Positions 34,977-64,000 of a stretch of DNA of 64,000 bases are shown here, piece by piece (the stretch's first letter is position 1; every line of letters begins with the position of its first letter). The notes beneath the pieces are model-generated. The model saw nothing but the letters and a program-made list of their open reading frames with translations, did not search any database and had not been told where the DNA came from. The stretch lies in the IMG/VR virus record IMGVR_UViG_3300006467_000282, positions 1 to 64,000 of that record; one strand, given 5' to 3'. The position numbers and the translations under genes were made by a program. This stretch comes from a virus (lineage: Duplodnaviria > Caudoviricetes).

Positions 34977-35645
34977 TTATCTTGTATTTGTAGTATATTT
35001 GAATGTTCCTGAAGTTCCAGAGCTTTCAACATTCCCATGAATAAAATGATCAAATGTTTCTTCTCGTTCCAACGGATTAAACTCGTAATCATCTATAATA
35101 ACTATTAATGCTTCAAATACTTTGATATTCTTTTCAGTGTTGGATATGGAATTTTCTATATTTAACTTTTCATTCTTGATCATTTCTAAGAAAAGACTTT
35201 TAGCTGCGCCTTTATATTTAACGCGCCCTTCCATTTTTATAAGAACTTCATATCGTTTTTGGTGTTCTTCGATTTGCATTTCTGCATTTTCTATTTGAGC
35301 ATTAATCTGGTCTTCAAGCCGGTCAAATATATCAGCATATAGTATGCTATCATTGCTTGTATTATTCTTTAATATATTATCAATAATAACTCGAAGATTT
35401 TCCATTGCTAATTCTTGAATGGAAAGCTCTCTCTTTTCATCAGTATCGCCCGTTTCATCGTACCTTTTCTTTCGTTCAGGGTTGATTAAAATAGAATATG
35501 CAACGTTTACCTTATTAAATAATTCTGGATCTCCTCCGTGTTTATCCGGATGAGTTTTCTTTGCTCTTGCTCGGTAAGCTTTTTTGATTTCCTCCGGTGA
35601 AGCATCCTTTTTCACTCCCAGCTCTTCGTAAAGCTTCATTTCCAT
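34977..35645 (-). CDS. J-domain (DnaJ-like) protein
   Basis: LYEELGV...EIKKAYR..AKKTHPDK...YSILINPERKKRYD; HPD motif intact. Confidence 0.9.
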   Translation of the reverse strand: MEMKLYEELGVKKDASPEEIKKAYRARAKKTHPDKHGGDPELFNKVNVAYSILINPERKKRYDETGDTDEKRELSIQELAMENLRVIIDNILKNNTSNDSILYADIFDRLEDQINAQIENAEMQIEEHQKRYEVLIKMEGRVKYKGAAKSLFLEMIKNEKLNIENSISNTEKNIKVFEALIVIIDDYEFNPLEREETFDHFIHGNVESSGTSGTFKYTTNTR

Positions 35646-35670
35646 CTCCTTTGTTAAAAATTATAAAAAG

Positions 35671-35699
35671 ATCCTATCATAAAAAATAACCATTGTAAA
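35671..35699 (-). promoter_or_regulatory. Promoter for the J-domain gene
   Basis: TTTACA-N17-TAGGAT. Confidence 0.55.
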
Positions 35700-35720
35700 T
35701 ATAAAATAATTATTTTTCAT

Positions 35721-35749
35721 TTTACAAATAAGAATTTATGTGTTATTAT
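35721..35749 (+). promoter_or_regulatory. Sigma70-type promoter
   Basis: TTTACA-N17-TATTAT. Confidence 0.6.
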
Positions 35750-35780
35750 CTATTTGTAAAATAAACTTGTAGGAGGTTAA

Positions 35781-35888
35781 ATGAAAAAATTTCTAATAAA
35801 AATAATTCAAGCAATCATCCTTACAGCAGTTATGGTAATCGGTAGTCATTTATTATATAAACTTTTAAGCTCAATCAGTTCAATATAA
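35781..35888 (+). CDS. 35-aa single-TM peptide (not in ORF track)
   Basis: AGGAGG RBS; MKKFLIKIIQAIILTAVMVIGSHLLYKLLSSISSI. Confidence 0.6.
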   Translation: MKKFLIKIIQAIILTAVMVIGSHLLYKLLSSISSI

Positions 35889-35904
35889 TTGGAGGAACCA
35901 GATA

Positions 35905-36144
35905 ATGGAACAAGATAACATATTAATTAAGTTATTGAAGTCACTATTTATTTTTATTATAGTAATAGGCTTAAGCATTGCTATTAGTTTAATTACGGAT
36001 TGGTATTTCAGATTACCAGTTATTCATCAGTCATATTCATCTAAGGAATGTATCAAGATCATGATCGAAGGTGAAGAGTATGACTGTTCCAGGTTTGAGG
36101 AACTCACTAATAATCTTAAATACAGACGAGAATGGGTGAAATAA
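35905..36144 (+). CDS. Membrane-anchored hypothetical protein
   Basis: 79 aa, N-terminal TM, GGAGG RBS. Confidence 0.65.
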   Translation: MEQDNILIKLLKSLFIFIIVIGLSIAISLITDWYFRLPVIHQSYSSKECIKIMIEGEEYDCSRFEELTNNLKYRREWVK

Positions 36145-36148
36145 GATA

Positions 36149-36177
36149 TTTACAAAATAATTAAATTGTGTTATATT
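36149..36177 (+). promoter_or_regulatory. Sigma70-type promoter
   Basis: TTTACA-N17-TATATT. Confidence 0.65.
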
Positions 36178-36202
36178 TATATCATAAATTAATGCTTAAG
36201 GA

Positions 36203-36607
36203 GTGTTTATGTTAAGAGTAAGATTTAAAGCAAATCATGATGATTATCGGCCAGTGAATTGGCCAGTAAAACATCCATATTGGTGTTCAGGCTATGGGGA
36301 TGATTATTCTATCGTTATTTCATATGCTGATAATACCGATTATATTTATGAGAATTGGCCTGAGGCAAAAGATTTAGACTCGGAAGAAGTTGAAGGTTAT
36401 ACATTTACAGACCGGTTTCCAAAACCGGAATGGTTTGACGAAATAAAAACATATTGCAATATCTGTGAGCGAAGATTAAACAATCCAGAAGACCCAACAA
36501 CTAAGGATTGCGGTGGGGATTGTTTAAAATGTATGGCAGAAGTTGCAGAAGACCCCGATTGTATTATTGAATTAAATAAATTAAGGAGAAGCGATGACAA
36601 AAATTGA
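36203..36607 (+). CDS. Hypothetical protein with a C-terminal Cys cluster
   Basis: DDYRPVNWPVKHPYWCSG; CNIC...CGGDCLKC...C. Confidence 0.7.
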   Translation: MFMLRVRFKANHDDYRPVNWPVKHPYWCSGYGDDYSIVISYADNTDYIYENWPEAKDLDSEEVEGYTFTDRFPKPEWFDEIKTYCNICERRLNNPEDPTTKDCGGDCLKCMAEVAEDPDCIIELNKLRRSDDKN

Positions 36608-46580: not shown

Positions 46581-47059
46581 TATTTGAAGGACCAGATGGA
46601 GCTGGTAAAAGTTATATTGCAAGTTATATAAGTACAGTATCTAAAATTCCAATTTATCATGCTGGAGGACCACCAAAAACTCCGGAAGAAATAGTGGAAC
46701 GTGCTAATAAAATGGTGAAAATGGAAAACAAGATATTTGATAGATTTCCTATAATTTCTGAACAAATATATGGAACTATCGTCAGGGATAATAATCCCTT
46801 TAACTTTGGAGATTTAAAAGATATTCCTTTTCCCGTTGTATATTGCAGACCTTTTCGAGAGACATTGCTTTCATCAGAAAAAATTGAAAAGGATTATAAA
46901 GCAGGTAAACATATGAAGAGTGTCCTGGAAAAATATGAACAAATTATCGACAAATATGACGAACTTATGAGTTCGTTACCACATTTAACCTTTAATAGGG
47001 ATTTAGAATCATGTGCGGACTTTCTTACACGATTGGAAAGAACAATATTGAGAAAATGA
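46568..47059 (+). CDS. dNMP (thymidylate-type) kinase
   Basis: IIFEGPDGAGKS P-loop; FDRF.IISEQIYG. Confidence 0.8.
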   Translation: MPSIIFEGPDGAGKSYIASYISTVSKIPIYHAGGPPKTPEEIVERANKMVKMENKIFDRFPIISEQIYGTIVRDNNPFNFGDLKDIPFPVVYCRPFRETLLSSEKIEKDYKAGKHMKSVLEKYEQIIDKYDELMSSLPHLTFNRDLESCADFLTRLERTILRK

Positions 47060-48345
47060 ACGAAACCCTCAGGCATCGAGGAATACGTTCAAGTTATAAA
47101 AAATTAAATGATAATGATTTATATCTCGGCCATACCCGACTTCCAATTCAGGGGGTTGATAAAAGATATGACCAACCATCTGTATATGGAAATTATACAG
47201 CAGCAATGGTTGGAGAATTGTTTAATTTCAGAGCAATGGACCCAAGTGCAAGGACTGATTTATCTGTTTTAATGGATCAATATTCAATGAACGGGTCAAA
47301 TGTATTTATGAATTTTGATGGGTTTTGGTCAGTCATTATTTATAATGAATTTACGGGTTATACTGATATTTTCACAGATCATCTTGCAAAGAAACCCTTA
47401 TACTATAGAACTGATCTGTGCGCATTTGCTTCAGAAATAAAAGCATTAACTGTATTAGGTGAAAATACATTTGATAAAACTTATTTCTCAGCTGTTGCTA
47501 AATGGGGATACTGCCCTGAAGATCGTACACCCTTTAGCGAAATCAAAAAGTTGCCCGGTGGAGCACATATCCAGTTGAATTCTATGGGTTATGTAATTAA
47601 TTCTAAGTCCTATCTAAGTCTATTACCAAGTCCATCCGCAAGTTTAGAACTTATTATGGAAGATGCAGTTCGAAATCGTTTGGTATCTGATGTTCCAGTT
47701 TCCTTGCTCATGAGTGGTGGTTTGGATAGTACAATTATATATTATCTTATGAGAAAACATACAGATTCGATGACTATTTTTCATATAGATAATGATGAAG
47801 CAGAATATTTGAATTATATTGACTTTCGCCCACAAGACAAACTTATTTCCTTATCCATTGATGATACCTTATACGATACAGATGAAGTACTTTGGCATAA
47901 TGATGGACCTGTTGATCTTGGATCGTTAATGCCTCAGTATCTTCTTGCAAAGGAAATTAAAAAACATGGATTTAACGTGTGCTTATCAGGTGATGGTGCT
48001 GATGAATTGTTCGGTGGATATAAAAGGATAACTGAATATGATTCACAGTATTCTGATATATTTCATGAGCTTGCTTATTATCATTTACCAAGGCTGGATA
48101 AAATGATGATGGCTCATACAATTGAATTGCGTTCACCATTTCTTGCCCATTATGTAATTGAACACGCGCTGTCTATGAAGTATGAAGACAGGATTAATAA
48201 AATAGGATTAAAAGAAGCATTCAAACATATTGTTCCTGAAGAAATAGTTAATCGTAAGAAAAAACCATTAAGATATCGTACCGATTGGCGGCACGATTTG
48301 ATTAAACAATATAAAGATCTAATAATCAAGCGAGGTTTAGTATGA
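47011..48345 (+). CDS. asnB: Asparagine-synthetase-like glutamine amidotransferase (class II GATase + PP-loop)
   Basis: N-terminal MCG, HRG, GHTRLPI, MSGGLDS, SGDGADELFGGY, ELRSPFL. Confidence 0.88.
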   Translation: MCGLSYTIGKNNIEKMNETLRHRGIRSSYKKLNDNDLYLGHTRLPIQGVDKRYDQPSVYGNYTAAMVGELFNFRAMDPSARTDLSVLMDQYSMNGSNVFMNFDGFWSVIIYNEFTGYTDIFTDHLAKKPLYYRTDLCAFASEIKALTVLGENTFDKTYFSAVAKWGYCPEDRTPFSEIKKLPGGAHIQLNSMGYVINSKSYLSLLPSPSASLELIMEDAVRNRLVSDVPVSLLMSGGLDSTIIYYLMRKHTDSMTIFHIDNDEAEYLNYIDFRPQDKLISLSIDDTLYDTDEVLWHNDGPVDLGSLMPQYLLAKEIKKHGFNVCLSGDGADELFGGYKRITEYDSQYSDIFHELAYYHLPRLDKMMMAHTIELRSPFLAHYVIEHALSMKYEDRINKIGLKEAFKHIVPEEIVNRKKKPLRYRTDWRHDLIKQYKDLIIKRGLV

Positions 48346-48992
48346 ATGTAAATGATGTAGAAGAAATTGAAATTGAAGGTGATATGCTCGAAGCAATATT
48401 TGCGAAACAGAAATCATTGATGGATAAATATCATGTGATTGAAGAAAAGCAGGGAGTTGGGTATGGAATATTGAAAGGTAATCCTTTTGATATCAATGAA
48501 ATCCGCTCTCAATGTTTGGTAAAAGATTTTGCTTGGCGGTTTACAGAAGAAATTACTGAAGCTTCCGAGGGATTATTGAATGGGGAAACGGCGCATTTTC
48601 TAGAAGAACTTGCTGATGCTCTTCATTTCATAACTGAACTTTGTATTATGGTTGAGATTACTCCGAAAGATCTTATTGGCGAATTCCTCGGTTATAATCC
48701 TGATCAGGATATGTTTTATAAGTTATTTTTTGTTTGTGGTATGCCTAGAAAAGCTCTTCCGGATACATACAAACCAATTTACCATATGGGTTTGGCAATG
48801 AATTGCTTGAAACAAAAACCATGGAAGCAAACACACATTCTTACAGACCAAACTGCTTTTAAAAAACATATAATAGATTCCTACAGAGCTTTTTGTGAAT
48901 ATATGTCCCATTTTGAAGATGACAAAACTATGGCCAGTTATTATTTCAAAAAGAACGTTGTAAATCAATTCCGTCAAGACACACAATACTAA
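48342..48992 (+). CDS. Dimeric all-alpha dUTPase/dCTPase-like pyrophosphatase
   Basis: EEITEA...LEELADALHF...KQKPWKQ. Confidence 0.7.
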   Translation: MNVNDVEEIEIEGDMLEAIFAKQKSLMDKYHVIEEKQGVGYGILKGNPFDINEIRSQCLVKDFAWRFTEEITEASEGLLNGETAHFLEELADALHFITELCIMVEITPKDLIGEFLGYNPDQDMFYKLFFVCGMPRKALPDTYKPIYHMGLAMNCLKQKPWKQTHILTDQTAFKKHIIDSYRAFCEYMSHFEDDKTMASYYFKKNVVNQFRQDTQY

Positions 48993-49002
48993 TGGAGGTA
49001 AT

Positions 49003-49365
49003 ATGGGTTCTGTGATTGCAAGAATAAATGGTAATCGGTGTAAGTTCAATAATAACAAACATTTCGCTTTATATTTAATCGAAATATTGATTTACTCAGT
49101 TTCTCCCTTAGACGTTAAACTTAAAACCCTGGCTGAAATAATGGAAATGTCCGGACATAAAAGACGAATTAAATCCTGGGGTAAGGTTGATACTGATGAA
49201 AAATTTTCTAAATTATATTCAGAAACAATTCTTGCAATGGAAAATCTTTCCCCATTACCCGGTTTCAGTTCTTCAAAACCGAATGCTGTAAAAGCTGGAT
49301 ATAATAACCCGGAAAGAGGTCGGATATCGACTGATTGGACAAAAGATAAGAATCTTAACAAATAA
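49003..49365 (+). CDS. Hypothetical protein
   Basis: 120 aa, GGAGG RBS. Confidence 0.65.
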   Translation: MGSVIARINGNRCKFNNNKHFALYLIEILIYSVSPLDVKLKTLAEIMEMSGHKRRIKSWGKVDTDEKFSKLYSETILAMENLSPLPGFSSSKPNAVKAGYNNPERGRISTDWTKDKNLNK

Positions 49366-49367
49366 AT

Positions 49368-49574
49368 ATGTTTGAAGAGTTTGATAAAATACAGCGTGAA
49401 AATGCAGAGGGTAACACTTGCCGTACATGTAAATATTGTGCTAAATCAAACTTACTTACTAATCATTACTATTATTATTGCCACGTTCTACGATCAAAAA
49501 GAACGCGTTCTAAAATGATGAGAGTTAAACTAAAAGACAGAGCATGCGTAAATTACAAGGAGAAGAAAAAATGA
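49368..49574 (+). CDS. Small Cys-rich protein
   Basis: CRTCKYC...C...AC. Confidence 0.55.
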   Translation: MFEEFDKIQRENAEGNTCRTCKYCAKSNLLTNHYYYYCHVLRSKRTRSKMMRVKLKDRACVNYKEKKK

Positions 49575-50422
49575 CATACGAAATTGAACACGTAAATCTA
49601 AAGAAACAAGAAATTCCAGATGATTATCATTGCGATTGTGACTTTTGCAAAGAATTCGGTGGAGTACTAATTCGTGAAGACGGAACAAAATACAACAAAC
49701 TCGAACGCCGTAAATACTATGATACTGAAAATGAAAAGACTCATATTGCAAAAACACCATTGCACGTTGCTCGCTGGGCAATTCAGGAATATAGCGATGA
49801 AGCTGAAAATGTTCTTGATCCAACAATGGGTGCAGGTACAACTGCAGTAGAAGCTCTTATGCAGAAGAGAAATGCATTCGGAGTTGAAATTCAGTTCATT
49901 GACGTTATTAAAGCTAATATTGCAAAATGTAATCCATATGATATGCATGCAAAAATATATCATGGTGATGCTCGTGGTATTGCAGATTACTTCAGGGGTG
50001 AATCATTTGATTTGATTATTAATAATCCACCATATTCTGGGGATGAAAATCAAACAAGTTTTGGCGGGGATAAACGCAACATGATGGAATACGATAAAAC
50101 CCTGGCTAAGAATCTTGCTTTCATGAAAGAAAATGAGGCGTATTGGGGTACAATGTCAGATATCTATCGGGCTGCAACCAGGAGATTAAAAGTAGGTGGG
50201 CGTCTGGTAATTGGTGTTAAAGATATGGTGAAAAATAAAGCTCCATTCCTGATTCATAAACATTACGGCGAAGGTATAATGCGAATTGAAGATATGAGAT
50301 TTGAAAAAATGGTTCTTCTTCCACATTATCCGACAACACTTTTCATGAATACATACAATAAACGCTTTCCAGATGTCAAAGTTCCACAATACCAAACAAT
50401 ACTTGTGTTTATAAAAGTTTAA
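49571..50422 (+). CDS. SAM-dependent amino (N4-C/N6-A type) methyltransferase
   Basis: VLDPTMGAGTT motif I, then IINNPPY motif IV; RBS favours ATG 49571. Confidence 0.82.
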   Translation: MTYEIEHVNLKKQEIPDDYHCDCDFCKEFGGVLIREDGTKYNKLERRKYYDTENEKTHIAKTPLHVARWAIQEYSDEAENVLDPTMGAGTTAVEALMQKRNAFGVEIQFIDVIKANIAKCNPYDMHAKIYHGDARGIADYFRGESFDLIINNPPYSGDENQTSFGGDKRNMMEYDKTLAKNLAFMKENEAYWGTMSDIYRAATRRLKVGGRLVIGVKDMVKNKAPFLIHKHYGEGIMRIEDMRFEKMVLLPHYPTTLFMNTYNKRFPDVKVPQYQTILVFIKV

Positions 50423-50429
50423 ATAGATA

Positions 50430-50458
50430 TTTACAAAATAATGTTTTTATAATATAAT
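50430..50458 (+). promoter_or_regulatory. Sigma70-type promoter
   Basis: TTTACA-N17-TATAAT. Confidence 0.75.
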
Positions 50459-50485
50459 GTATCATTATTAATTAACGGAGGTACA

Positions 50486-51199
50486 ATGAGAATATTTACA
50501 AATCCAGTAGAAATGGTTAAAGAAGTTGAACGAGATTTATTTGAAATGGGAACTCGTTATCAGTCATCAACAGTGCAGGATCAAGACGTGGCAGATGATC
50601 CTGATTTCCAAACAATGGAATTATGTGGATATGCTTATATGTTGACTGAATTTGATTCAAACAATATGTTTGATATGCTTGATCATTCCGGGAAAATTAA
50701 CGCAGAATGGTTGAACTACGAAGACCAGGAACGTCGATATGGAACTACTGACAGACCACTAAATCCAGGATTAGCTTATACATTTAATGGTGAATTCTGG
50801 GAGAAATTTATTAGAAATGGCGTATTCTCTTATTCATATGCTGAGCGTTTCCAAGCACAACTCCCCTATATTATTCGGGAATTAAAAGCTAAACCGAATA
50901 CTCGCCAAGCAGTTATGACAATGTATGATCGTCACCAAGATATGATGCATTGGGGCGGACGAGATCGTGTTCCTTGCTCATTGACTTATCAGTTTATGTT
51001 GAGAGAAGATAAACTTGTTCTGATTTATAACCAAAGATCTTGTGATTTTGTTAAGTTTTTCCCATCAGATGTTTGGTTAACAGTTAATCTGCTTAAACAT
51101 GTTGCAAGAGAAATTGGTAAAGAACCAGGGCAGTTTATCCATATGCTTGGATCACTCCATGCATTTGCAGGTGATCTTAAAGGTAAAGAGATATTCTGA
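50486..51199 (+). CDS. Thymidylate-synthase homologue, dCMP hydroxymethylase-type
   Basis: RVPC164, QRSCD187, Asp195 at the ThyA Asn177 position, GSLH. Confidence 0.82.
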   Translation: MRIFTNPVEMVKEVERDLFEMGTRYQSSTVQDQDVADDPDFQTMELCGYAYMLTEFDSNNMFDMLDHSGKINAEWLNYEDQERRYGTTDRPLNPGLAYTFNGEFWEKFIRNGVFSYSYAERFQAQLPYIIRELKAKPNTRQAVMTMYDRHQDMMHWGGRDRVPCSLTYQFMLREDKLVLIYNQRSCDFVKFFPSDVWLTVNLLKHVAREIGKEPGQFIHMLGSLHAFAGDLKGKEIF

Positions 51200-51419
51200 T
51201 GAAAAAGAAAGATAGATACTGGGCAGTTTTTTCTCCAACTGGAGCAATGTTTACATCTACAATTAGAAAAAGAGAGGGAGATTGTAAACCTGCCTTTTTT
51301 AAAAACTATATTATGCGCCGGCATGAGTACGATAGTTGTAGTACTCGGGAAGTACTTATCACTGAAATAAAAAAATAAGAATATATTTTAATTTAATTTT
51401 AAAAGCAGAGGAAAGAAGA

Positions 51420-51830
51420 ATGAAAAAAATTAACGTAACGAATGTATTATTTTTATTGGCAATTCTATTTGTATTAAGTATTTTAACCCTCAATGGTTGT
51501 GGAAATGAAGATGCTCGAGTTGCATCCAATAATCTATCAAAAGCTGCAGATATGTTTGAGATTAATAGAAGAGTTGTTTTTTACAACGGCATTACTGATA
51601 AGTATATCTTATCAATTGAAGGACGTTGCGCAGTAGAGTTTTTTCCAAATAAATTTACTGTAACTATAAAAACTGGTCCGAATGAATTCAAAAAGCATTA
51701 CTTGGGAAGAGCTGATAATGTTTTCCCTTTCGTTGAACAACTTGATGCTGTACCAGTGGATGTTTATCATTATAAAGTCATCTTCAAACCACAGTCAATT
51801 ATTCCAGATATAGATATGAAAGTAAAGTAG
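51420..51830 (+). CDS. Putative lipoprotein
   Basis: Signal peptide ending LTLNGC; RRVVFYNGITD...IEGRC...KKHYLG. Confidence 0.65.
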   Translation: MKKINVTNVLFLLAILFVLSILTLNGCGNEDARVASNNLSKAADMFEINRRVVFYNGITDKYILSIEGRCAVEFFPNKFTVTIKTGPNEFKKHYLGRADNVFPFVEQLDAVPVDVYHYKVIFKPQSIIPDIDMKVK

Positions 51831-51868
51831 GGGCTAATAAATTAATTATAATTACAGGAGAGAAACAC

Positions 51869-51906
51869 TAATCCTGAAGGCTTTTCAGTCCCGGTTTTCA
51901 GGATTA
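51869..51906. repeat. Intergenic inverted repeat
   Basis: TAATCCTGAA...TTCAGGATTA. Confidence 0.55.
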
Positions 51907-51930
51907 ATAATCACTAAAGGAAATATAATA

Positions 51931-52254
51931 ATGAAAATGCCAAGAGAAAAACGCAGAAAATCTGAAAATGGATTATGCGCAACAGATCAAATCATGTATA
52001 TGCCACAACATGTTAAAGGTGATGTTGATCATCCAGACGTTGAAATCGGTTTTATTGTCGGAATTACTTATGATCGAACTGAAGCTTTTTGCCGATATTT
52101 CCAAAAGGGAAGTAAGACTGAATTCAGAACAAGAGCAAATAGTGAGTGTACTCCAGTTAATTGCTTAAGTAAATTAGATCATAAAGATCGAATTGACCAA
52201 GAAATCGTGGATGAATGGCTTGAAGATATAGTTAACGGGAGGGATTTACCATGA
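51931..52254 (+). CDS. Hypothetical protein
   Basis: 107 aa. Confidence 0.65.
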   Translation: MKMPREKRRKSENGLCATDQIMYMPQHVKGDVDHPDVEIGFIVGITYDRTEAFCRYFQKGSKTEFRTRANSECTPVNCLSKLDHKDRIDQEIVDEWLEDIVNGRDLP

Positions 52255-52514
52255 CCCATTACTCGGAAGACCCAAGAAGAGTAAGAGTTGATTTCTTTAA
52301 ACCTTCCGGAAAATGGTATGCAACTGAAGCTGTATTATGGACAGGAAGATACGGAGGCAAAGACCAACTAATTCATGACGCATTTAAAACAAGTTTACAA
52401 AAGCATTTCGAAGATCATCCTAACAGCCTAAAAGAAATGGATGCAATTTGTTTAAAACCTTATCATGAAAATGCTCACCCGATTCAAATTAAAGCAGGAG
52501 GATGGAATAAATGA
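52251..52514 (+). CDS. Hypothetical protein
   Basis: 87 aa; VRVDFFKPSGKWY. Confidence 0.7.
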   Translation: MTHYSEDPRRVRVDFFKPSGKWYATEAVLWTGRYGGKDQLIHDAFKTSLQKHFEDHPNSLKEMDAICLKPYHENAHPIQIKAGGWNK

Positions 52515-52747
52515 TGTTAGAATTTTTCATTGGCAATATACAAGAAACTTCCCTTGAAAATACAGCAGGAACAGTATTGAATAGGAAAGCAATAGAAAAT
52601 ATTGTCACAGAAATAATTCGTACAGGAAATATTAGTATTAATTTTATTGATATCCTTATAAATGAAAACGAATCAGATAAAGGTCATCTTGTTAAAGCAT
52701 CTACTTTCAGAAATGAATTAAAAGAATATATAGAGGGAATAGATTAA
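52511..52747 (+). CDS. Hypothetical protein
   Basis: 78 aa, ATGA overlap. Confidence 0.55.
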   Translation: MMLEFFIGNIQETSLENTAGTVLNRKAIENIVTEIIRTGNISINFIDILINENESDKGHLVKASTFRNELKEYIEGID

Positions 52748-53203
52748 ATGAAAAGACCATCGCAAGATAAATATTTCATGTCAATGGCGATGCTTGCTGC
52801 AACACGCTCAAATTGTTATCGTCGGCAAGTAGGTTGTGTAATTATTGATAAAGAAAATCGTGTACTTGCCACAGGCTACAATGGCGTTCCTTCAGGATAT
52901 CCCCACTGCGAAATCGGGGAATGCCCAAGAGATAAACCTGGGGCGGATTTACATTTATGTCTTGCAATACATGCAGAACAGAATGCTCTATTGCAGTGTT
53001 CAGATGTAGATAAGATTCATAAAGTATATGTAACTGATAGTCCGTGTTTGACTTGCACAGTAATGTTGATGAATACTAATTGCAAGCAAATCCTATACAA
53101 CAAGCCATATCCTGGGCATGAAACATCAAAAGATGCGTGGAAGAAACTAAATCGAATCTGGAGACAATATGACTTTCGTTCAAGCACCATTATTCCCAAC
53201 TAA
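52748..53203 (+). CDS. dCMP deaminase
   Basis: RSNCYRRQVGCVI, TGYNG, HAEQNA, PCLTC. Confidence 0.9.
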   Translation: MKRPSQDKYFMSMAMLAATRSNCYRRQVGCVIIDKENRVLATGYNGVPSGYPHCEIGECPRDKPGADLHLCLAIHAEQNALLQCSDVDKIHKVYVTDSPCLTCTVMLMNTNCKQILYNKPYPGHETSKDAWKKLNRIWRQYDFRSSTIIPN

Positions 53204-55184
53204 AGCAAAATGGGAATTGCCCAAGGAATTACCGAATCTATCTGGAGCTAAAGTAATCGGACTCGATACTGAGACACGCGATCCACAGCTTATAGAAAAA
53301 GGTCCGGGGGTAAGACGAGATGGATACCTGGTTGGAATATCAGTTGCAGTTCCAGAAGGTGATACCTGGTATTTGCCATTTGGCCATGCTGAAGGTAAAC
53401 AATTTGAACGTGAAAATGTGTTACGTTGGGCAAAAGATAATCTATGCAATCCAAATCAACCAAAAGTCGGAGCAAATATATTATATGATTTAGATTATCT
53501 ATATCATGCAGGAGTAAAAGTAGCAGGATCTTTCTTTGATATCCAAAATGCAGAACCGTTAATAGATGAAAATGCATATAGTTATTCTCTTGACACTTTA
53601 GCCAGGAAATATTTAGGTGAGAGCAAGCGGGAAGATATCTTAGATGATGTTTGTCGAGATTACGGATTAAAGGGTAAATCTCAAAAGCATTTATGGAGAT
53701 TCGGTGCTGAATATACCGGAACATATGCTGAGGGTGATGCAATCCAAGCTCTGCGAATATTTGAAAAACAGAAACCTGTTATTGCAGCGCAGGGATTAGA
53801 AACAGTGTTTGATATGGAAACACGTCTTATACCAATGCTTTTGCATATGAGACAACTCGGTGTACCAATTGATGTTGATCGATTAATGGGTTTACATGAT
53901 CAAATGACAGGTGAGCTTGATCAGCACAAGCTCGATCTTGATAATATTGCAGGTAGTCATATTGATTACTGGGCAGCAGAGTCAATTGCTAAAGTATTTG
54001 ATAAATCAGGGATTGATTATCCATTAACACCCAAATCTAAAAAGCCATCATTCACAAAAGATTGGCTTGATAATCATGGAAGTGATCTTTCCAGAAAGAT
54101 ATTGAAATGTAGAGAAGTCGACAAATTTGTAGGAACATTTCTTGAAGGTTCACTATTAGAAATGTTAGTTGGGGATCGGATTCATTGTCAATTTAATCAA
54201 TTAAGGTCAGATGAATTTGGAACAGTAACAGGTAGATTCTCATCCTCAAATCCCAACTTACAATTTATTCCTACAAGAACAGCTTTAGGGAAACTTTGCC
54301 GAAAATTATTCATACCAGACGAAGGTTATGGGTGGTGTAAAGCAGATTATTCTCAAATCGAAATAAGAATATTAGCACATTATGCAATGGGGAACGGAGC
54401 AGATGACGTTCGTCAAACTTTTATAGATAATCCCAGAGTCGATTATCACCAATGGTGTGCTGATATTGCAGGAGTTAGTCGTAGTGCTGCAAAGACTATT
54501 AACTTTGGAATTGTTTATGGAATGGGAGCTGAAAAGCTTGGCCGATCATTAGGAATTCCAACACATGAAGCTAAGAAATTCATCGACAACTACTTTATAG
54601 AATTACCTTTTGTAAAACATACTGTAGGTCAAGCAACACAAGCAGCAGAAAAACGTGGATATATTAAAACTATTCTTGGTCGCCGTAGAAGATATGATCT
54701 TTGGGAACCAAATGATTTTGATCTTGGTAAAATAATAAAAGCAGACCGTAGTCCGAAAGTAGTTGAGAAAAGAATAGAAAAATATATCTCAGAAAATAAA
54801 GGTAACCTCGGTAGAAAAGTTCGTCGGGGAGTAAAACGAGCAGGATGCTATCGAGCATTTAATGCTGCTGATCAGGGATCTGCAGCTGATATTATGAAAC
54901 TTGCTTTAGTTGATATTTGGGAAAGTGGAGTCTGCGATGTTATTAAACCATATATAACTGTACACGATGAATTAGATTTTGGTTATCCACTTTCAAAAAT
55001 CGGTAAAGAGGCAATTTATGAAGTTAAACATATCATGGAAGATGTTTATGAACTGAAAGTTCCAATGATCTGCGATATTGAAACCGGCCCGAATTGGGGC
55101 AATGTAAATGAACAGTGGAATTTATGTAATAAATATACTGAGGCAGGTCATAAATTTGCAGTAAAACAAGCGGAGATAGGATAA
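53169..55184 (+). CDS. polA: DNA polymerase family A (3'-5' exonuclease + polymerase)
   Basis: GLDTET, ADYSQIEIRILAH, RSAAKTINFGIVYG (Phe762 type), TVHDEL. Confidence 0.95.
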   Translation: MTFVQAPLFPTKAKWELPKELPNLSGAKVIGLDTETRDPQLIEKGPGVRRDGYLVGISVAVPEGDTWYLPFGHAEGKQFERENVLRWAKDNLCNPNQPKVGANILYDLDYLYHAGVKVAGSFFDIQNAEPLIDENAYSYSLDTLARKYLGESKREDILDDVCRDYGLKGKSQKHLWRFGAEYTGTYAEGDAIQALRIFEKQKPVIAAQGLETVFDMETRLIPMLLHMRQLGVPIDVDRLMGLHDQMTGELDQHKLDLDNIAGSHIDYWAAESIAKVFDKSGIDYPLTPKSKKPSFTKDWLDNHGSDLSRKILKCREVDKFVGTFLEGSLLEMLVGDRIHCQFNQLRSDEFGTVTGRFSSSNPNLQFIPTRTALGKLCRKLFIPDEGYGWCKADYSQIEIRILAHYAMGNGADDVRQTFIDNPRVDYHQWCADIAGVSRSAAKTINFGIVYGMGAEKLGRSLGIPTHEAKKFIDNYFIELPFVKHTVGQATQAAEKRGYIKTILGRRRRYDLWEPNDFDLGKIIKADRSPKVVEKRIEKYISENKGNLGRKVRRGVKRAGCYRAFNAADQGSAADIMKLALVDIWESGVCDVIKPYITVHDELDFGYPLSKIGKEAIYEVKHIMEDVYELKVPMICDIETGPNWGNVNEQWNLCNKYTEAGHKFAVKQAEIG

Positions 55185-55609
55185 TGGAATGCTCATGTAC
55201 TATATCAAACTGGGATTACGATTCTGAGGATCATTGCTATGAAGATTTAATCTTTAAAGAAGATTATCAAGCACCAAGGGAAAGAGAGTGTAATGAATGT
55301 CATGAATTTATGCAGCCAAATGAACCACACTTTTGTCGAACTACAATCTATTTTGATGAAAATGAGAATTTTGAAAGTTTAGATAGATATCGTCATTGTA
55401 ATGAATGTGATGAAATCATTACAATATTCTTCGATGGATATTTTATGGGGATGGCCTGGGAAGATCTAAGAAGAAGTATCTTAGATGAAGAAATTGTTGC
55501 AACTGAATCATGTCTTTCTAAATTATCACCAAAGAATCTTGCTAAGGTCTGCGAAATAGTAGAGGAAATGTGGGAAAATAATTACGATGAGGATGAGAAT
55601 GATTATTAA
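55184..55609 (+). CDS. Cys-rich acidic hypothetical protein
   Basis: CNEC twice. Confidence 0.6.
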   Translation: MECSCTISNWDYDSEDHCYEDLIFKEDYQAPRERECNECHEFMQPNEPHFCRTTIYFDENENFESLDRYRHCNECDEIITIFFDGYFMGMAWEDLRRSILDEEIVATESCLSKLSPKNLAKVCEIVEEMWENNYDEDENDY

Positions 55610-55632: not shown

Positions 55633-55857
55633 ATGGGTAAAATGTCAATCATTGATAACACAGGCGATACAAAAGTAATTTGGGACAAAGACAATGCTGA
55701 TGAAGTTGAAGCAGCAGAGGATCAGTTTGATACTTTAATCAATAAAGGTTTTGTAGCTTATGCAGTAACAAAAAGTGGTGAAGCTGGAAAAAAGATTAAA
55801 AAATTTCTTGCTAAAGCTGGTAAAATCATAATGATACCACCAATAGCTGGAGGTTAA
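55633..55857 (+). CDS. Ubiquitin-like (predicted beta-grasp) 74-aa protein ending in Gly-Gly
   Basis: b-b-a-b-b-b sequence pattern, C-terminus IIMIPPIAGG, AAGGAG RBS. Confidence 0.6.
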   Translation: MGKMSIIDNTGDTKVIWDKDNADEVEAAEDQFDTLINKGFVAYAVTKSGEAGKKIKKFLAKAGKIIMIPPIAGG

Positions 55858-55858
55858 T

Positions 55859-56485
55859 ATGACTACTACAGCAACATGTACTATTTCAAGTGATGATTCT
55901 ACTTGGTATACTTGGGCAGATTCAACTGCTACTACTTCAGTTGAAAAGTCTACTTGGACTTCTTGGACAAGCGCAGCTTCAACTACTTCAACAATGCCCG
56001 AAACAACCACTTACACAGATGATGGTGGAACTGTTTGGGTACAGTGGGTAGGAGAACTTACGATTGAAACTTCTGTAGAAGAACCTGATAGATATGACAT
56101 CAGTCATAGAGAAGTTGAAGAGGAATCAGATTACAAAAAAAGAGAAAAAGAAAGAGAAATTGCAGAAGATGTGGCGAAAGAACTTTTACTTGACTTAATT
56201 GGCAAGAAAGAACTTAAAGTTTATGAAGAAACAGGCAGGCTTTTTGTCAAAGGAAAGAAGTTTGATTATATTGTACAAAAAGATTCATTTGTTCAAAAGA
56301 TTGAGAAAGATAAAATTACAGATTTATGCGTACATCTTGATAATAAGTATAAATTTCCAGATACGGATAATGTAGTTGCAATGAAACTACTTCTTGAAAC
56401 AGACGAAGACATTATACTTGATCTTGCAAACGAACATGGATCGGATGATCGACCCGAAAAGTTACCTTTAGCTGCATGTATGTAA
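55859..56485 (+). CDS. Partner of the Gly-Gly protein: WxxW-repeat low-complexity N-terminus and Cys-His C-terminal domain
   Basis: Starts 1 bp after the upstream stop; DLC157VH...FPDTD..VAMKLLLETDE..LDLAN. Confidence 0.6.
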   Translation: MTTTATCTISSDDSTWYTWADSTATTSVEKSTWTSWTSAASTTSTMPETTTYTDDGGTVWVQWVGELTIETSVEEPDRYDISHREVEEESDYKKREKEREIAEDVAKELLLDLIGKKELKVYEETGRLFVKGKKFDYIVQKDSFVQKIEKDKITDLCVHLDNKYKFPDTDNVVAMKLLLETDEDIILDLANEHGSDDRPEKLPLAACM

Positions 56486-56510
56486 TAACCAGATAATAGA
56501 TGAGGGATAA

Positions 56511-56861
56511 ATGGAACAACTACCAGAATTAATGTTTGCTTTATTGAATGATAAAAAATCAGGATTGAAATCAATACTTGTTGATATAACAACAATTGAA
56601 AATCAAATCAGAGGAGTTGACCATTTTCTTAAAAATATAGATGAAGCTGATATGGAAGAAGCTGATATCAGGAAAAAGTTTAAGACAATGATGAAGGTCT
56701 CAAATAAGCAGAATAAGATAATAATGAAATTATTGTACCTTGTCATTGTCTATATGCAGGGGAATAACTTTGATTCCGATGTTGCTCATATGTTGATGAA
56801 ATTCGGCAAAGGTGAGGAAGCTTTACAGGCAATGGTTAGAAATAAATTTAAAGGTATATAA
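56511..56861 (+). CDS. Hypothetical helical protein
   Basis: 116 aa. Confidence 0.65.
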   Translation: MEQLPELMFALLNDKKSGLKSILVDITTIENQIRGVDHFLKNIDEADMEEADIRKKFKTMMKVSNKQNKIIMKLLYLVIVYMQGNNFDSDVAHMLMKFGKGEEALQAMVRNKFKGI

Positions 56862-62946: not shown

Positions 62947-63173
62947 AAATCAAAAAAGATCAATTGGTAAAAGTTAATCATGTACGTAAAGGTAGATTTA
63001 ATGCAATTGCAGATAATGATTTCGATACAGATACAACAACATGGTATCCACTATCGGTAGCTCAGGAAGATCCAATTAATGGTTTTTCTACAGTAGCAAA
63101 GTGGAGAAAAGGCGAATCAATTCCATGTAGAAATTCACTCTGTGAGATTTCAATAATTGAGAAAGGTAAATAA
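62943..63173 (+). CDS. Hypothetical protein
   Basis: ATGA overlap, GGGAG RBS. Confidence 0.6.
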   Translation: MKIKKDQLVKVNHVRKGRFNAIADNDFDTDTTTWYPLSVAQEDPINGFSTVAKWRKGESIPCRNSLCEISIIEKGK

Positions 63174-63174
63174 A

Positions 63175-64000
63175 ATGAAAAGCATAATAGTTTATTCGGG
63201 CAAGGGCGGAGTTGGGAAGACAACTACTACTGCAAACTTGGCAAAAGCACTTGTTGATAAAGGGAAAAGCGTATTTATATTGGACGCGGATATAAATACT
63301 CCATCCATGCATGTTGTTTTCCCAGATAAAACTGTTAATAAGAACTTATACGTACATTCCATGGGGTATGATACTCGTGGATTAGTTTATATTCAAGGTA
63401 GTATGGTAAAAAAATACATCAGACAAGCAAAAACAAAAGTTAATAAGATGAAACCTGATATTGTATTGATTGATACTCCACCCTCTATAACAGATATTCA
63501 TCTTAATTTAATTGAATCTTTGGAAGTATCTGGAGTTATTTTTGTAACTCAACCTAATAAACTAAGTATGGAAGATGTCGGTCGAACTTCTGGATTTTTT
63601 AAAACAAAAGAGATACCAGTAATTGGTATAATTGAAAATATGAGTCAGGGAGAAGCTATTGATTATACAGTTTCTTTACTTGGCAAAATAAAATTCGAAT
63701 CATCTTTTGATATTGAAAAAGTATTCAAGCTTAATTATAAAACTTATGATGAAATTTCTAATATAGTAATGGATGCGGAAGATGCAATATATGAAAGTAG
63801 TACAAAACAATTTACCGATGAATCTATTTCTGAAGAAGCTGTACAGGAAATGATGCGTTCTAAATTAATGCCTAAATTAAAGTTCGTTAATTTAGCAACT
63901 TGGGATTACCTGGTTGAATATTTCTTAGAAAATGATTTTGCTGGATTATATTCTTTGGATAGATTTATAGATCATAATACAACAGAGAAAATAGGTAGAA
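63175..64000 (+). CDS. Mrp/NBP35/ParA-family P-loop ATPase, truncated by the window edge (not in ORF track)
   Basis: Hand translation: MKSIIVYSGKGGVGKTTTTANLA...ILDADINTPS...LIDTPP...VTQP...IGIIENMS; open to 64000. Confidence 0.85.
   Translation, partial: MKSIIVYSGKGGVGKTTTTANLAKALVDKGKSVFILDADINTPSMHVVFPDKTVNKNLYVHSMGYDTRGLVYIQGSMVKKYIRQAKTKVNKMKPDIVLIDTPPSITDIHLNLIESLEVSGVIFVTQPNKLSMEDVGRTSGFFKTKEIPVIGIIENMSQGEAIDYTVSLLGKIKFESSFDIEKVFKLNYKTYDEISNIVMDAEDAIYESSTKQFTDESISEEAVQEMMRSKLMPKLKFVNLATWDYLVEYFLENDFAGLYSLDRFIDHNTTEKIGR

Follow-up and report, generated by a model that had tools for sequence, protein, structure and literature searches.

A Gly-Gly-tailed protein and its partner are encoded by adjacent phage genes

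The DNA analysed here (the window) covers 64 kb of a virus record (IMGVR_UViG_3300006467_000282; Caudoviricetes) that is complete at 82,031 bp and has direct terminal repeats. Our subject is a pair of adjacent genes on its plus strand, the first for a 74-amino-acid (aa) protein that ends in Gly-Gly and the second for a 208-aa partner that contains an invariant cysteine, Cys157. A reading made from the sequence alone had described the two as a possible minimal conjugation system, with a ubiquitin-like protein (Ubl) coupled to a Cys-His partner. Both open reading frames (ORFs) are as that reading had them: the 74-aa ORF ends in IAGG, and the 208-aa ORF with Cys157 starts 1 nt later, the junction between them being GCT GGA GGT TAA T ATG. 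The features of the locus are as follows.

55633..55857, plus strand: gene for the Gly-Gly-tailed 74-aa protein, recognised as an ORF with homologues; product ends ...IIMIPPIAGG, with the motif GDTKVxWD..N.DEV..A...F..L and the tail PPIAGG
55849..55854, plus strand: codons GGA GGT for Gly73-Gly74; bases 55849-55853, GGAGG, are the Shine-Dalgarno site of the partner gene, 5 nt 5' of its ATG
55859..56485, plus strand: partner gene, 208 aa, after a 1-nt gap and translationally coupled to the 74-aa ORF; product contains DLC157VH
55859..56062, plus strand: N-terminal region of the partner (residues 1-68), rich in Ser and Thr and predicted to be disordered; contains three [TVI]WxxW[NTV] motifs
56093..56482, plus strand: partner C-terminal domain, residues 79-208, delimited by an AlphaFold2 (AF2) model and conserved columns
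56327..56329, plus strand: codon of invariant Cys157, at the end of the fourth strand (partner alignment and AF2 model)
56366..56368, plus strand: codon of Asp170, also invariant, where the helix that follows the Cys loop starts (partner alignment and AF2 model)
56511-56861, plus strand: 116-aa ORF, a neighbour of the pair, from the ORF listing

The Gly-Gly end is conserved across a large family

A word-indexed search returned 28 close homologues of the small protein, and an exhaustive HMMER search of 1.84 billion cluster representatives (clusters at 50% identity) returned 1042 matches at E<=0.001, almost all of which extend to the last residue. The sequence-only reading depended on conservation of the Gly-Gly end, and this was borne out: 148 of the 178 family sequences in hand end exactly in Gly-Gly, and most of the others have Gly-Gly followed by 1-11 residues (GGA, GGN, GGL, GGAA, GGANG and similar ends). 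In an alignment of 150 diverse members, Gly74 is the only invariant column; G73, G11, D12, W17, E24, A28, F32, A42, G49 and F58 are near-invariant. A Gly-Gly end with an occasional extension of 1-11 residues is, by analogy, the pattern of processed Ubls. Some members of the family have two domains in tandem (P0067, P0078, P0165 and a protein of Virus Rctr197k).

The C-terminal half and tail of the small protein do resemble those of MoaD at the sequence level, with PP-x-x before the Gly-Gly. When the family profile was aligned using hhalign, only the tail region was matched, with a probability of 3% for E. coli MoaD and 0.5% for ThiS; the aligned tails read ...FD..IIMVPPmaGG for the family and ...FDHPLTDGDEVAFFPPVTGG for E. 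coli MoaD.

The two genes travel together as a module

We gathered 121 related loci, drawing on contigs from viruses and metagenomes and on look-ups of exact proteins. The C-terminal domain of the partner is encoded downstream in 90 of the 91 loci with at least 900 nt beyond the Gly-Gly gene, so that the linkage assumed by the sequence-only reading holds, with natural fusions besides; the only unlinked locus (L040) is a degenerate copy that lacks the Gly-Gly. The partner start lies between -8 and +13 nt from the stop codon in 35 of the first 41 loci, mostly from -1 to +4, with +1 and -1 the commonest spacings. The loci that carry the pair range in GC content from 0.32 to 0.70, and their flanking genes differ from one to the next, including RecT, an integrase with an S24 repressor, DNA polymerase, glycosyltransferases and ParB. 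An all-against-all comparison of 41 loci found no third conserved gene within 4-6 kb. The 116-aa ORF, which the sequence-only reading had listed with the pair, is present at 56511-56861 and is not a member of the module; we considered the 141-, 116- and 99-aa neighbours as candidates for a third gene, and none has a homologue in the 121 loci.

Among natural fusions of the small protein to the partner, P0101 and P0261 have the Gly-Gly at the junction, and P0263 and P0264 have lost it; fusions that retain the Gly-Gly are rare. A programmed frameshift that would join the two ORFs was considered and rejected, as their relative frame differs by locus (+1 in the window, -1 in locus L006). The two genes form a self-contained, mobile, co-translated phage module whose products work as a pair.

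No copy was found in two pattern scans of 185,579 prokaryotic species genomes, tblastn found no copy in plasmids, and the only match in the GenBank phage collection was Virus Rctr197k. For these reasons we regard the family as essentially one of uncultured phages, nearly absent from cultured phages and from curated families. In Rctr197k (KX853510.1; locus L128, 1309-4052), a tandem two-domain small protein ending in PG is followed by a 268-aa partner, and the viral record has an annotated CRISPR array ~1.2 kb 5' of the pair. Matches to the partner domain in BFVD were unnamed proteins that include A0A1P8DIP4 (E 1e-5, 268 aa), which is probably the protein at the partner position in Rctr197k, being of the same length, and A0A2L0UZL2 from Agrobacterium phage Atu_ph07. 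In Atu_ph07, AUZ95012.1 (397 aa) aligns to the partner profile with an hhalign probability of 80%, with Cys and Asp aligned; lying 4 nt before it, AUZ95013.1 has 117 aa, a VVTWD motif and the end FAGG. To judge from these sequence comparisons, the Atu_ph07 pair (MF403008.1, 181237-182788; locus L127, 2238-3789) is a divergent copy of the module in a cultured jumbo phage. A literature search found no paper describing such a phage Gly-Gly/Cys pair.

The Gly-Gly codons double as a ribosome-binding site

The final codons of the small-protein gene in the window spell GGAGG, 5 nt ahead of the partner ATG. The terminal Gly-Gly might then be a by-product of translational coupling, with GGNGG codons kept as the ribosome-binding site of the downstream gene and the proteins serving some function to which the Gly-Gly is irrelevant. 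In keeping with this, low-GC loci favour GGA at the penultimate Gly (9 of 14, versus 0.29 expected from internal Gly codons, p=0.006). However, the terminal Gly codons in high-GC loci are GGC GGC, GGT GGC or GGC GGG, which make poor ribosome-binding sites, and all four Gly codons occur at the Gly-Gly end across loci. Moreover, among seven loci in which the partner start is 8-114 nt distant or is served by a ribosome-binding site of its own, such as L016 with a separate GGAGG after the stop codon, six keep the Gly-Gly; it is also kept inside the fusions P0101 and P0261, where a ribosome-binding site is not needed. A GGAGG retained for the ribosome would also allow frames with x-Arg or x-Glu-x ends, yet none was found among the 178 small-protein sequences. 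Because the Gly-Gly survives with other codons and other spacings, these sequence comparisons indicate that the constraint is on the protein, not on the RNA; the bias to GGA in low-GC loci indicates that the ribosome-binding site does shape the choice of codon, as an overlay on the Gly-Gly codons that enforces co-translation of the partner. Codon use, spacing, fusions and the absent alternative frames together lead us to reject the Shine-Dalgarno site as the main cause of the Gly-Gly, and the by-product explanation, largely refuted, is very improbable.

The partner has an invariant cysteine and N-terminal WxxW repeats

The partner family comprises 81 close homologues, none of which has a Pfam domain. 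Across 63 partner sequences L110, C157 and D170 are invariant, and A102, A106, L109, P167, A190, N191, W19, W33, W36 and W63 are near-invariant. Among 85 distinct pairs, the Cys157 position is Cys in 96% and the Asp170 position is Asp in 95%. The cysteine of the proposed Cys-His partner is accordingly well supported; the histidine is not, since the residue at the His159 position varies and relatives read CCL, CVQ, CVY, CAY or CIQ.

The first 70-150 residues of the partners are Ser/Thr-rich and modelled as disordered, with a predicted local distance difference test score (pLDDT) of ~40. In the window partner this region contains three WxxW motifs, which the sequence-only reading had not mentioned: TWYTWA (W16/W19), TWTSWT (W33/W36) and VWVQWV (W60/W63). 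At least one [TVI]WxxW[NTV] motif, and usually three, is present in 61 of the 63 relatives; the other two have none. The Trp-rich region is absent from the fusions P0101 and P0261. From its sequence, the WxxW array looks like a repeated short linear binding motif.

The Gly-Gly tail may react with Cys157 of the partner

We tentatively propose that a host enzyme of the MoeB/ThiF type activates the Gly-Gly tail, which then reacts with Cys157 of the partner in a relation resembling the thioester relation between a Ubl and a ubiquitin-conjugating enzyme (E2). In such a scheme, a host adenylating enzyme of this type would activate the Gly-Gly carboxylate; we invoke a host enzyme because no gene for one travels with the pair. 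The activated Gly-Gly would then be passed to Cys157 as a thioester, as a Ubl is passed to an E2. It could go on from Cys157 to an amine on a target; alternatively, other chemistry could use the sulfur or acyl group. The WxxW repeats of the partner may recruit the small protein or a target.

One parallel is with Bub type I, which consists of BubAB, a Ubl fused to an E2 and cut after its Gly, BubCD, a fusion of a JAB peptidase with an activating enzyme (E1), and BubE (PMC11601596). By analogy, the exact Gly-Gly ends with short extensions, the order of Ubl-like and then E2-like protein, and the fusions with Gly at the junction (P0101 and P0261) mirror Bub type I. The two are also alike in having a small E2-like domain, with BubB (9eav_D) a weak match to the partner (Z 3.1). 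The phage pair differs in that it lacks a JAB peptidase, an E1 and BubE, no JAB-E1 gene accompanying it; in that Bub is found in host defence islands, whereas the Gly-Gly pair is carried by phages; and in that Bub uses oxyesters on Ser, whereas the phage partner has an invariant Cys (PMC11601596). In addition, the phage small protein has no beta-grasp match, and the phage partner has a WxxW-repeat N-terminus.

The Bil system (BilA Ubl, BilB E2, BilC JAB, BilD E1; PMC10557695, bioRxiv 10.1101/2023.09.04.556158) likewise combines a reactive C-terminal Gly protein with a Cys-bearing partner of E2 type, and the tandem-domain small proteins in the phage family recall the ISG15-like BilA. By contrast, Bil is host-borne and always has its own E1 and deubiquitinase, whereas the phage module has two genes and no detectable sequence relation to Bil.

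Family, fold and enzyme searches

Several lines of evidence weigh against transfer of the tail to Cys157. The first concerns family membership. The small protein matched nothing in Pfam or NCBIfam (E up to 1), in PHROGs (E up to 0.1) or in PADLOC, and no curated Ubl family (ThiS, ubiquitin, Prok_Ub and Urm1 of Pfam; NCBIfam) matched the window protein. When 150 members were scanned individually against Pfam, the commonest weak match was DUF7891 (9 of 150), of which we found no mention in the literature. An ESM Atlas search returned only unnamed phage clusters; a ThiS-named cluster scored 0.76, which is under the lead threshold. The partner has no family in Pfam, PHROG, NCBIfam or PADLOC, and a Pfam scan of 63 partners (E up to 5) gave nothing coherent, with no E2 family among the reported matches. 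The tail itself is not universal: some small-protein members lack the Gly-Gly and end in SG, AG, KG or PG, and Gly-Gly is also lost in some fusions.

The second line of evidence is the fold of the small protein, for which the sequence-only reading had proposed a beta-grasp with the order beta-beta-alpha-beta-beta-beta. In the AF2 model (28 sequences; pLDDT 77.6), a helix spans 22-37, and the strands are 13-16, which lies in the sheet, 41-45, 51-55 and 64-68. The first strand of the proposed order is not confidently modelled: residues 1-9 have a pLDDT <50 and appear disordered. No ubiquitin, ThiS or MoaD structure matched the small protein in Foldseek-PDB, in VIA-align against 48,161 representative chains, or in a second look with VIA. 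The best structural matches (Z 3-4.6) were the MAPK6 N-lobe and SepF-like domains, which are unrelated alpha/beta structures, and profile searches of solved-structure sequences gave chance-level matches only.

In a beta-grasp domain, a helix lies across a mixed sheet whose strands come in the order 2-1-5-3-4, strands 1 and 5 being parallel. Mean-field direct-coupling analysis of 249 distinct small-protein sequences (effective number, Meff, 225) recovered an antiparallel pairing of strands 3 and 5 (A42-M67, z 8.5; V45-K64) and a hairpin of strands 3 and 4, both of which are ubiquitin-like. The same analysis, like the AF2 model, paired strand 13-19 antiparallel with 63-69, through K19-G63 (z 5.1), I16-K64 (z 4.2), K14-P69 (z 3.6), and W17-I65 and I16-I66 (z 2.6 each); parallel pairing of residues 2-9 with 61-68, the beta-grasp hallmark, was seen only at z below 2. 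The sheet order is therefore likely to be 1-2-5-3-4 rather than 2-1-5-3-4, on the strength of a model and a covariation analysis that share covariation as their source of information and draw on a small alignment. A position of strand 1 at the edge of the sheet would explain why AF2 left it disordered. We lean against the proposed fold, and consider that the small protein is probably not a canonical beta-grasp or true ubiquitin fold. This sheet order and the use of the Gly-Gly codons as a Shine-Dalgarno site are both new in this analysis.

The third line of evidence is the fold of the partner, in which residues 85-208 are modelled by AF2 with pLDDT >90 (63 sequences). Helices at 79-114 and 116-125 are followed by strands at 127-131, 136-140, 144-148 and 152-157, the last of which ends with C157; after C157 come a loop with P167, helices at 168-181 (with D170 near the start) and 183-189, and a strand at 191-197. 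The order of secondary structure is that of E2, ubiquitin E2 variant (UEV) and RWD domains, with which the partner shares an N-terminal helix, a four-strand antiparallel meander, a conserved loop (C157...P167..D170) and two helices. In the model C157, at the end of strand 4 and 11 residues ahead of helix 168, would occupy a position topologically equivalent to that of the E2 Cys. The top eight matches in the VIA-wide search include five RWD domains (2daw, Z 4.5; 7e2k, Z 4.4; 2yz0, Z 4.2; 2ebm, Z 3.8; 2day, Z 3.5) and Ubc9 (4y1l, Z 4.4 over 83 residues, root-mean-square deviation 3.2), and lower matches include BubB, UBE2O and UEV-type chains; all of these Z scores, being no higher than 4.5, are in the chance range by the tool's own calibration. 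Foldseek-PDB and a second look with VIA gave nothing useful for the partner. The window partner also differs from E2 proteins in having no HPN motif, although H-x-G-N-V occurs in some distant relatives, ~12-16 residues ahead of the Cys; in leaving Pfam UQ_con and Prok-E2 unmatched; in having an extra C-terminal strand; and in the position of its Cys, which in E2 proteins lies ~10 residues later than the end of strand 4. The model thus resembles an E2/RWD domain only weakly, and the likeness is suggestive only.

The remaining evidence against the proposal comes from the pairing of the proteins and from enzymes. Covariation between the two proteins across 85 pairs, an underpowered sample, gave top z values of 4-5 that were scattered, with no tail-to-Cys signal. 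The sequence-only reading had noted that neither an E1 nor a JAB gene is visible in the window, and this holds for the complete 82-kb phage. No ThiF-type E1 was found there or in five other phage records, and ThiF was not among the Pfam annotations of neighbours at the loci examined; no Prok-JAB was found in the complete phage, which was searched genome-wide with PF14464 only, and none was seen among locus neighbours. No activating enzyme that could serve as the energy source for the chemistry is linked to the pair. An AsnB-like adenylating enzyme encoded in the window (47011-48345) was considered as the missing activator and rejected, being absent from the five other records with the pair.

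If the small protein is probably not a canonical beta-grasp, any ubiquitin-like chemistry would take place on a different scaffold. CBASS type II (CBASS, cyclic oligonucleotide-based antiphage signalling system) offers a comparison: Cap2 conjugates the CD-NTase C-terminus, which is ubiquitin-type Gly chemistry on a protein that is not a beta-grasp. The difference is that in this host system Cap2 supplies both E1 and E2, and we found no homology to the phage pair. A broader form of our proposal, which we consider unlikely as a whole, is that the pair is a minimal two-protein phage system for acyl transfer or tagging on non-ubiquitin folds, in which a MoeB/ThiF-type enzyme hijacked from the host, or else some new activity of the partner, would charge the Gly-Gly protein, which would be handed on via the Cys to targets in host or phage that the WxxW repeats select. 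If so, viruses would have, by convergence, an E1-less counterpart of ubiquitination that is widespread in uncultured phages.

Alternative explanations for the pair

The alternative that survives best, although we doubt it, is that the two proteins form a regulatory or structural heterodimer, in which Cys157 would serve redox, metal or disulfide chemistry, the Gly-Gly would be a flexible docking tail, and the WxxW repeats would bind a host protein. Neither protein matches a known catalytic family, the best structural matches are at chance level, and a triple WxxW in a disordered region resembles a short linear binding motif, all of which would suit such a heterodimer. Nonetheless, an invariant Cys and Asp beside a partner with an invariant free Gly end are more typical of acyl transfer than of docking, and a lone Cys is insufficient for a metal site.

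A somewhat less likely alternative is that the pair is a non-covalent obligate complex or a sulfur carrier in the style of MoaD-MoaE. A pocket of the partner would receive the Gly-Gly tail, which host MoeB/ThiF and a host sulfur donor might convert to a thiocarboxylate, and Cys157 would act on a small molecule or nucleic acid, for example in base or tRNA thiolation, with no protein being tagged. E. coli K-12 moaD, whose product ends in PPVTGG, and moaE share the gene order and the 1-nt spacing (locus L041, 3549-4248), and the PP-x-x-GG tails are similar enough to be aligned. The MoaD activator MoeB is encoded elsewhere in the genome, much as the phage pair has no linked activator, and the window phage has a nucleotide-modification gene cluster a few kb upstream of the pair. 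Moreover, Urm1-type carriers link thiocarboxylates to cysteine chemistry without an E2 (PMC9574740). On the other hand, the phage partner has an invariant Cys and does not look MoaE-like, with no MoaE chain among the 50 VIA-wide matches listed for it; ThiS/MoaD families of Pfam are not among the reported matches of the window protein or of the 150 members; the sheet order of the small protein differs; and the hhalign match to MoaD, at 3%, covers the tail only. Modification genes such as the AsnB-like gene also fail to co-occur with the pair in the five other records and in the flanks of 41 loci.

Less probable again is a counter-defence decoy, in which the two proteins would imitate the Ubl and E2 of Bil, Bub or CBASS-Cap2 in the host and trap the host E1, thereby blocking the tagging of phage proteins or the activation of cGAS-like enzymes. 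Target host systems that use C-terminal Gly chemistry do exist (PMC10557695, PMC11601596). The pair has no E1 of its own, and it is a mobile accessory cassette amid early and replication genes, with unrelated neighbours, which is the usual setting for anti-defence genes. However, neither protein resembles BilA, BubA or CD-NTase tails in sequence, or clearly so in fold, and an invariant Cys and Asp exceed the needs of a passive decoy. In addition, hosts carry Bil, Bub and CBASS type II only sporadically, whereas the phage family is very large and spans phage GC contents of 0.32-0.70.

To our knowledge, every ubiquitin-type tagging system so far found in the bacterial world (Bil, Bub and CBASS type II) serves host defence and has an E1 of its own. 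The Gly-Gly pair is on the virus side, consists of two genes only, and has >1000 clusters at 50% identity in metagenomes. If the tail does react with Cys157, as we tentatively propose, phages would borrow a host activating enzyme or use new chemistry, with a bearing on how phages rewire host proteins. If it does not, the pair would still be among the larger unexplained phage gene pairs, with sharply defined features: one Gly-Gly, one Cys, one Asp and three WxxW motifs. The divergent copy in Atu_ph07, a cultured Agrobacterium phage, provides an experimental entry point.

Genome context of the pair

In the window phage, structural genes occupy the minus strand up to ~35 kb, and genes for replication and nucleotide metabolism occupy the plus strand beyond. 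The switch between the two modules falls at 35000-36500, where the GC skew also flips sign. A cluster for nucleotide metabolism and possibly DNA modification lies at 47011-53203, just 5' of the gene for DNA polymerase A (53169-55184), and includes the following genes.

47011-48345: AsnB-like amidotransferase
48342-48992: dUTPase_2
49544-50422: N6/N4 DNA methylase
50486-51199: thymidylate-synthase-like gene
52748-53203: dCMP deaminase

Between the polymerase gene and the pair is a 141-aa Cys-rich ORF (55184-55609), which begins on the last base of the polymerase gene and has paired CNEC motifs that are zinc-ribbon-like; this ORF has no family match and, as above, no homologue across the 121 related loci. 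Genes for R2K-type ATP-grasp proteins (PF14243, PF18299) are found ~2.4 kb from the pair in locus L006 and 1.3 kb from it in locus L008, and not at other loci. A DUF5662 gene is present in the window phage at 40330-40830, and DUF5662 is also encoded ~1.5 kb from the pair in two unrelated metagenome loci (L006, 4029-4520; L007, 1207-1698). Lastly, a gene for a ParA/MinD-type P-loop ATPase at 63157-63999 runs past the end of the window; its sequence suggests a partition function in this phage.

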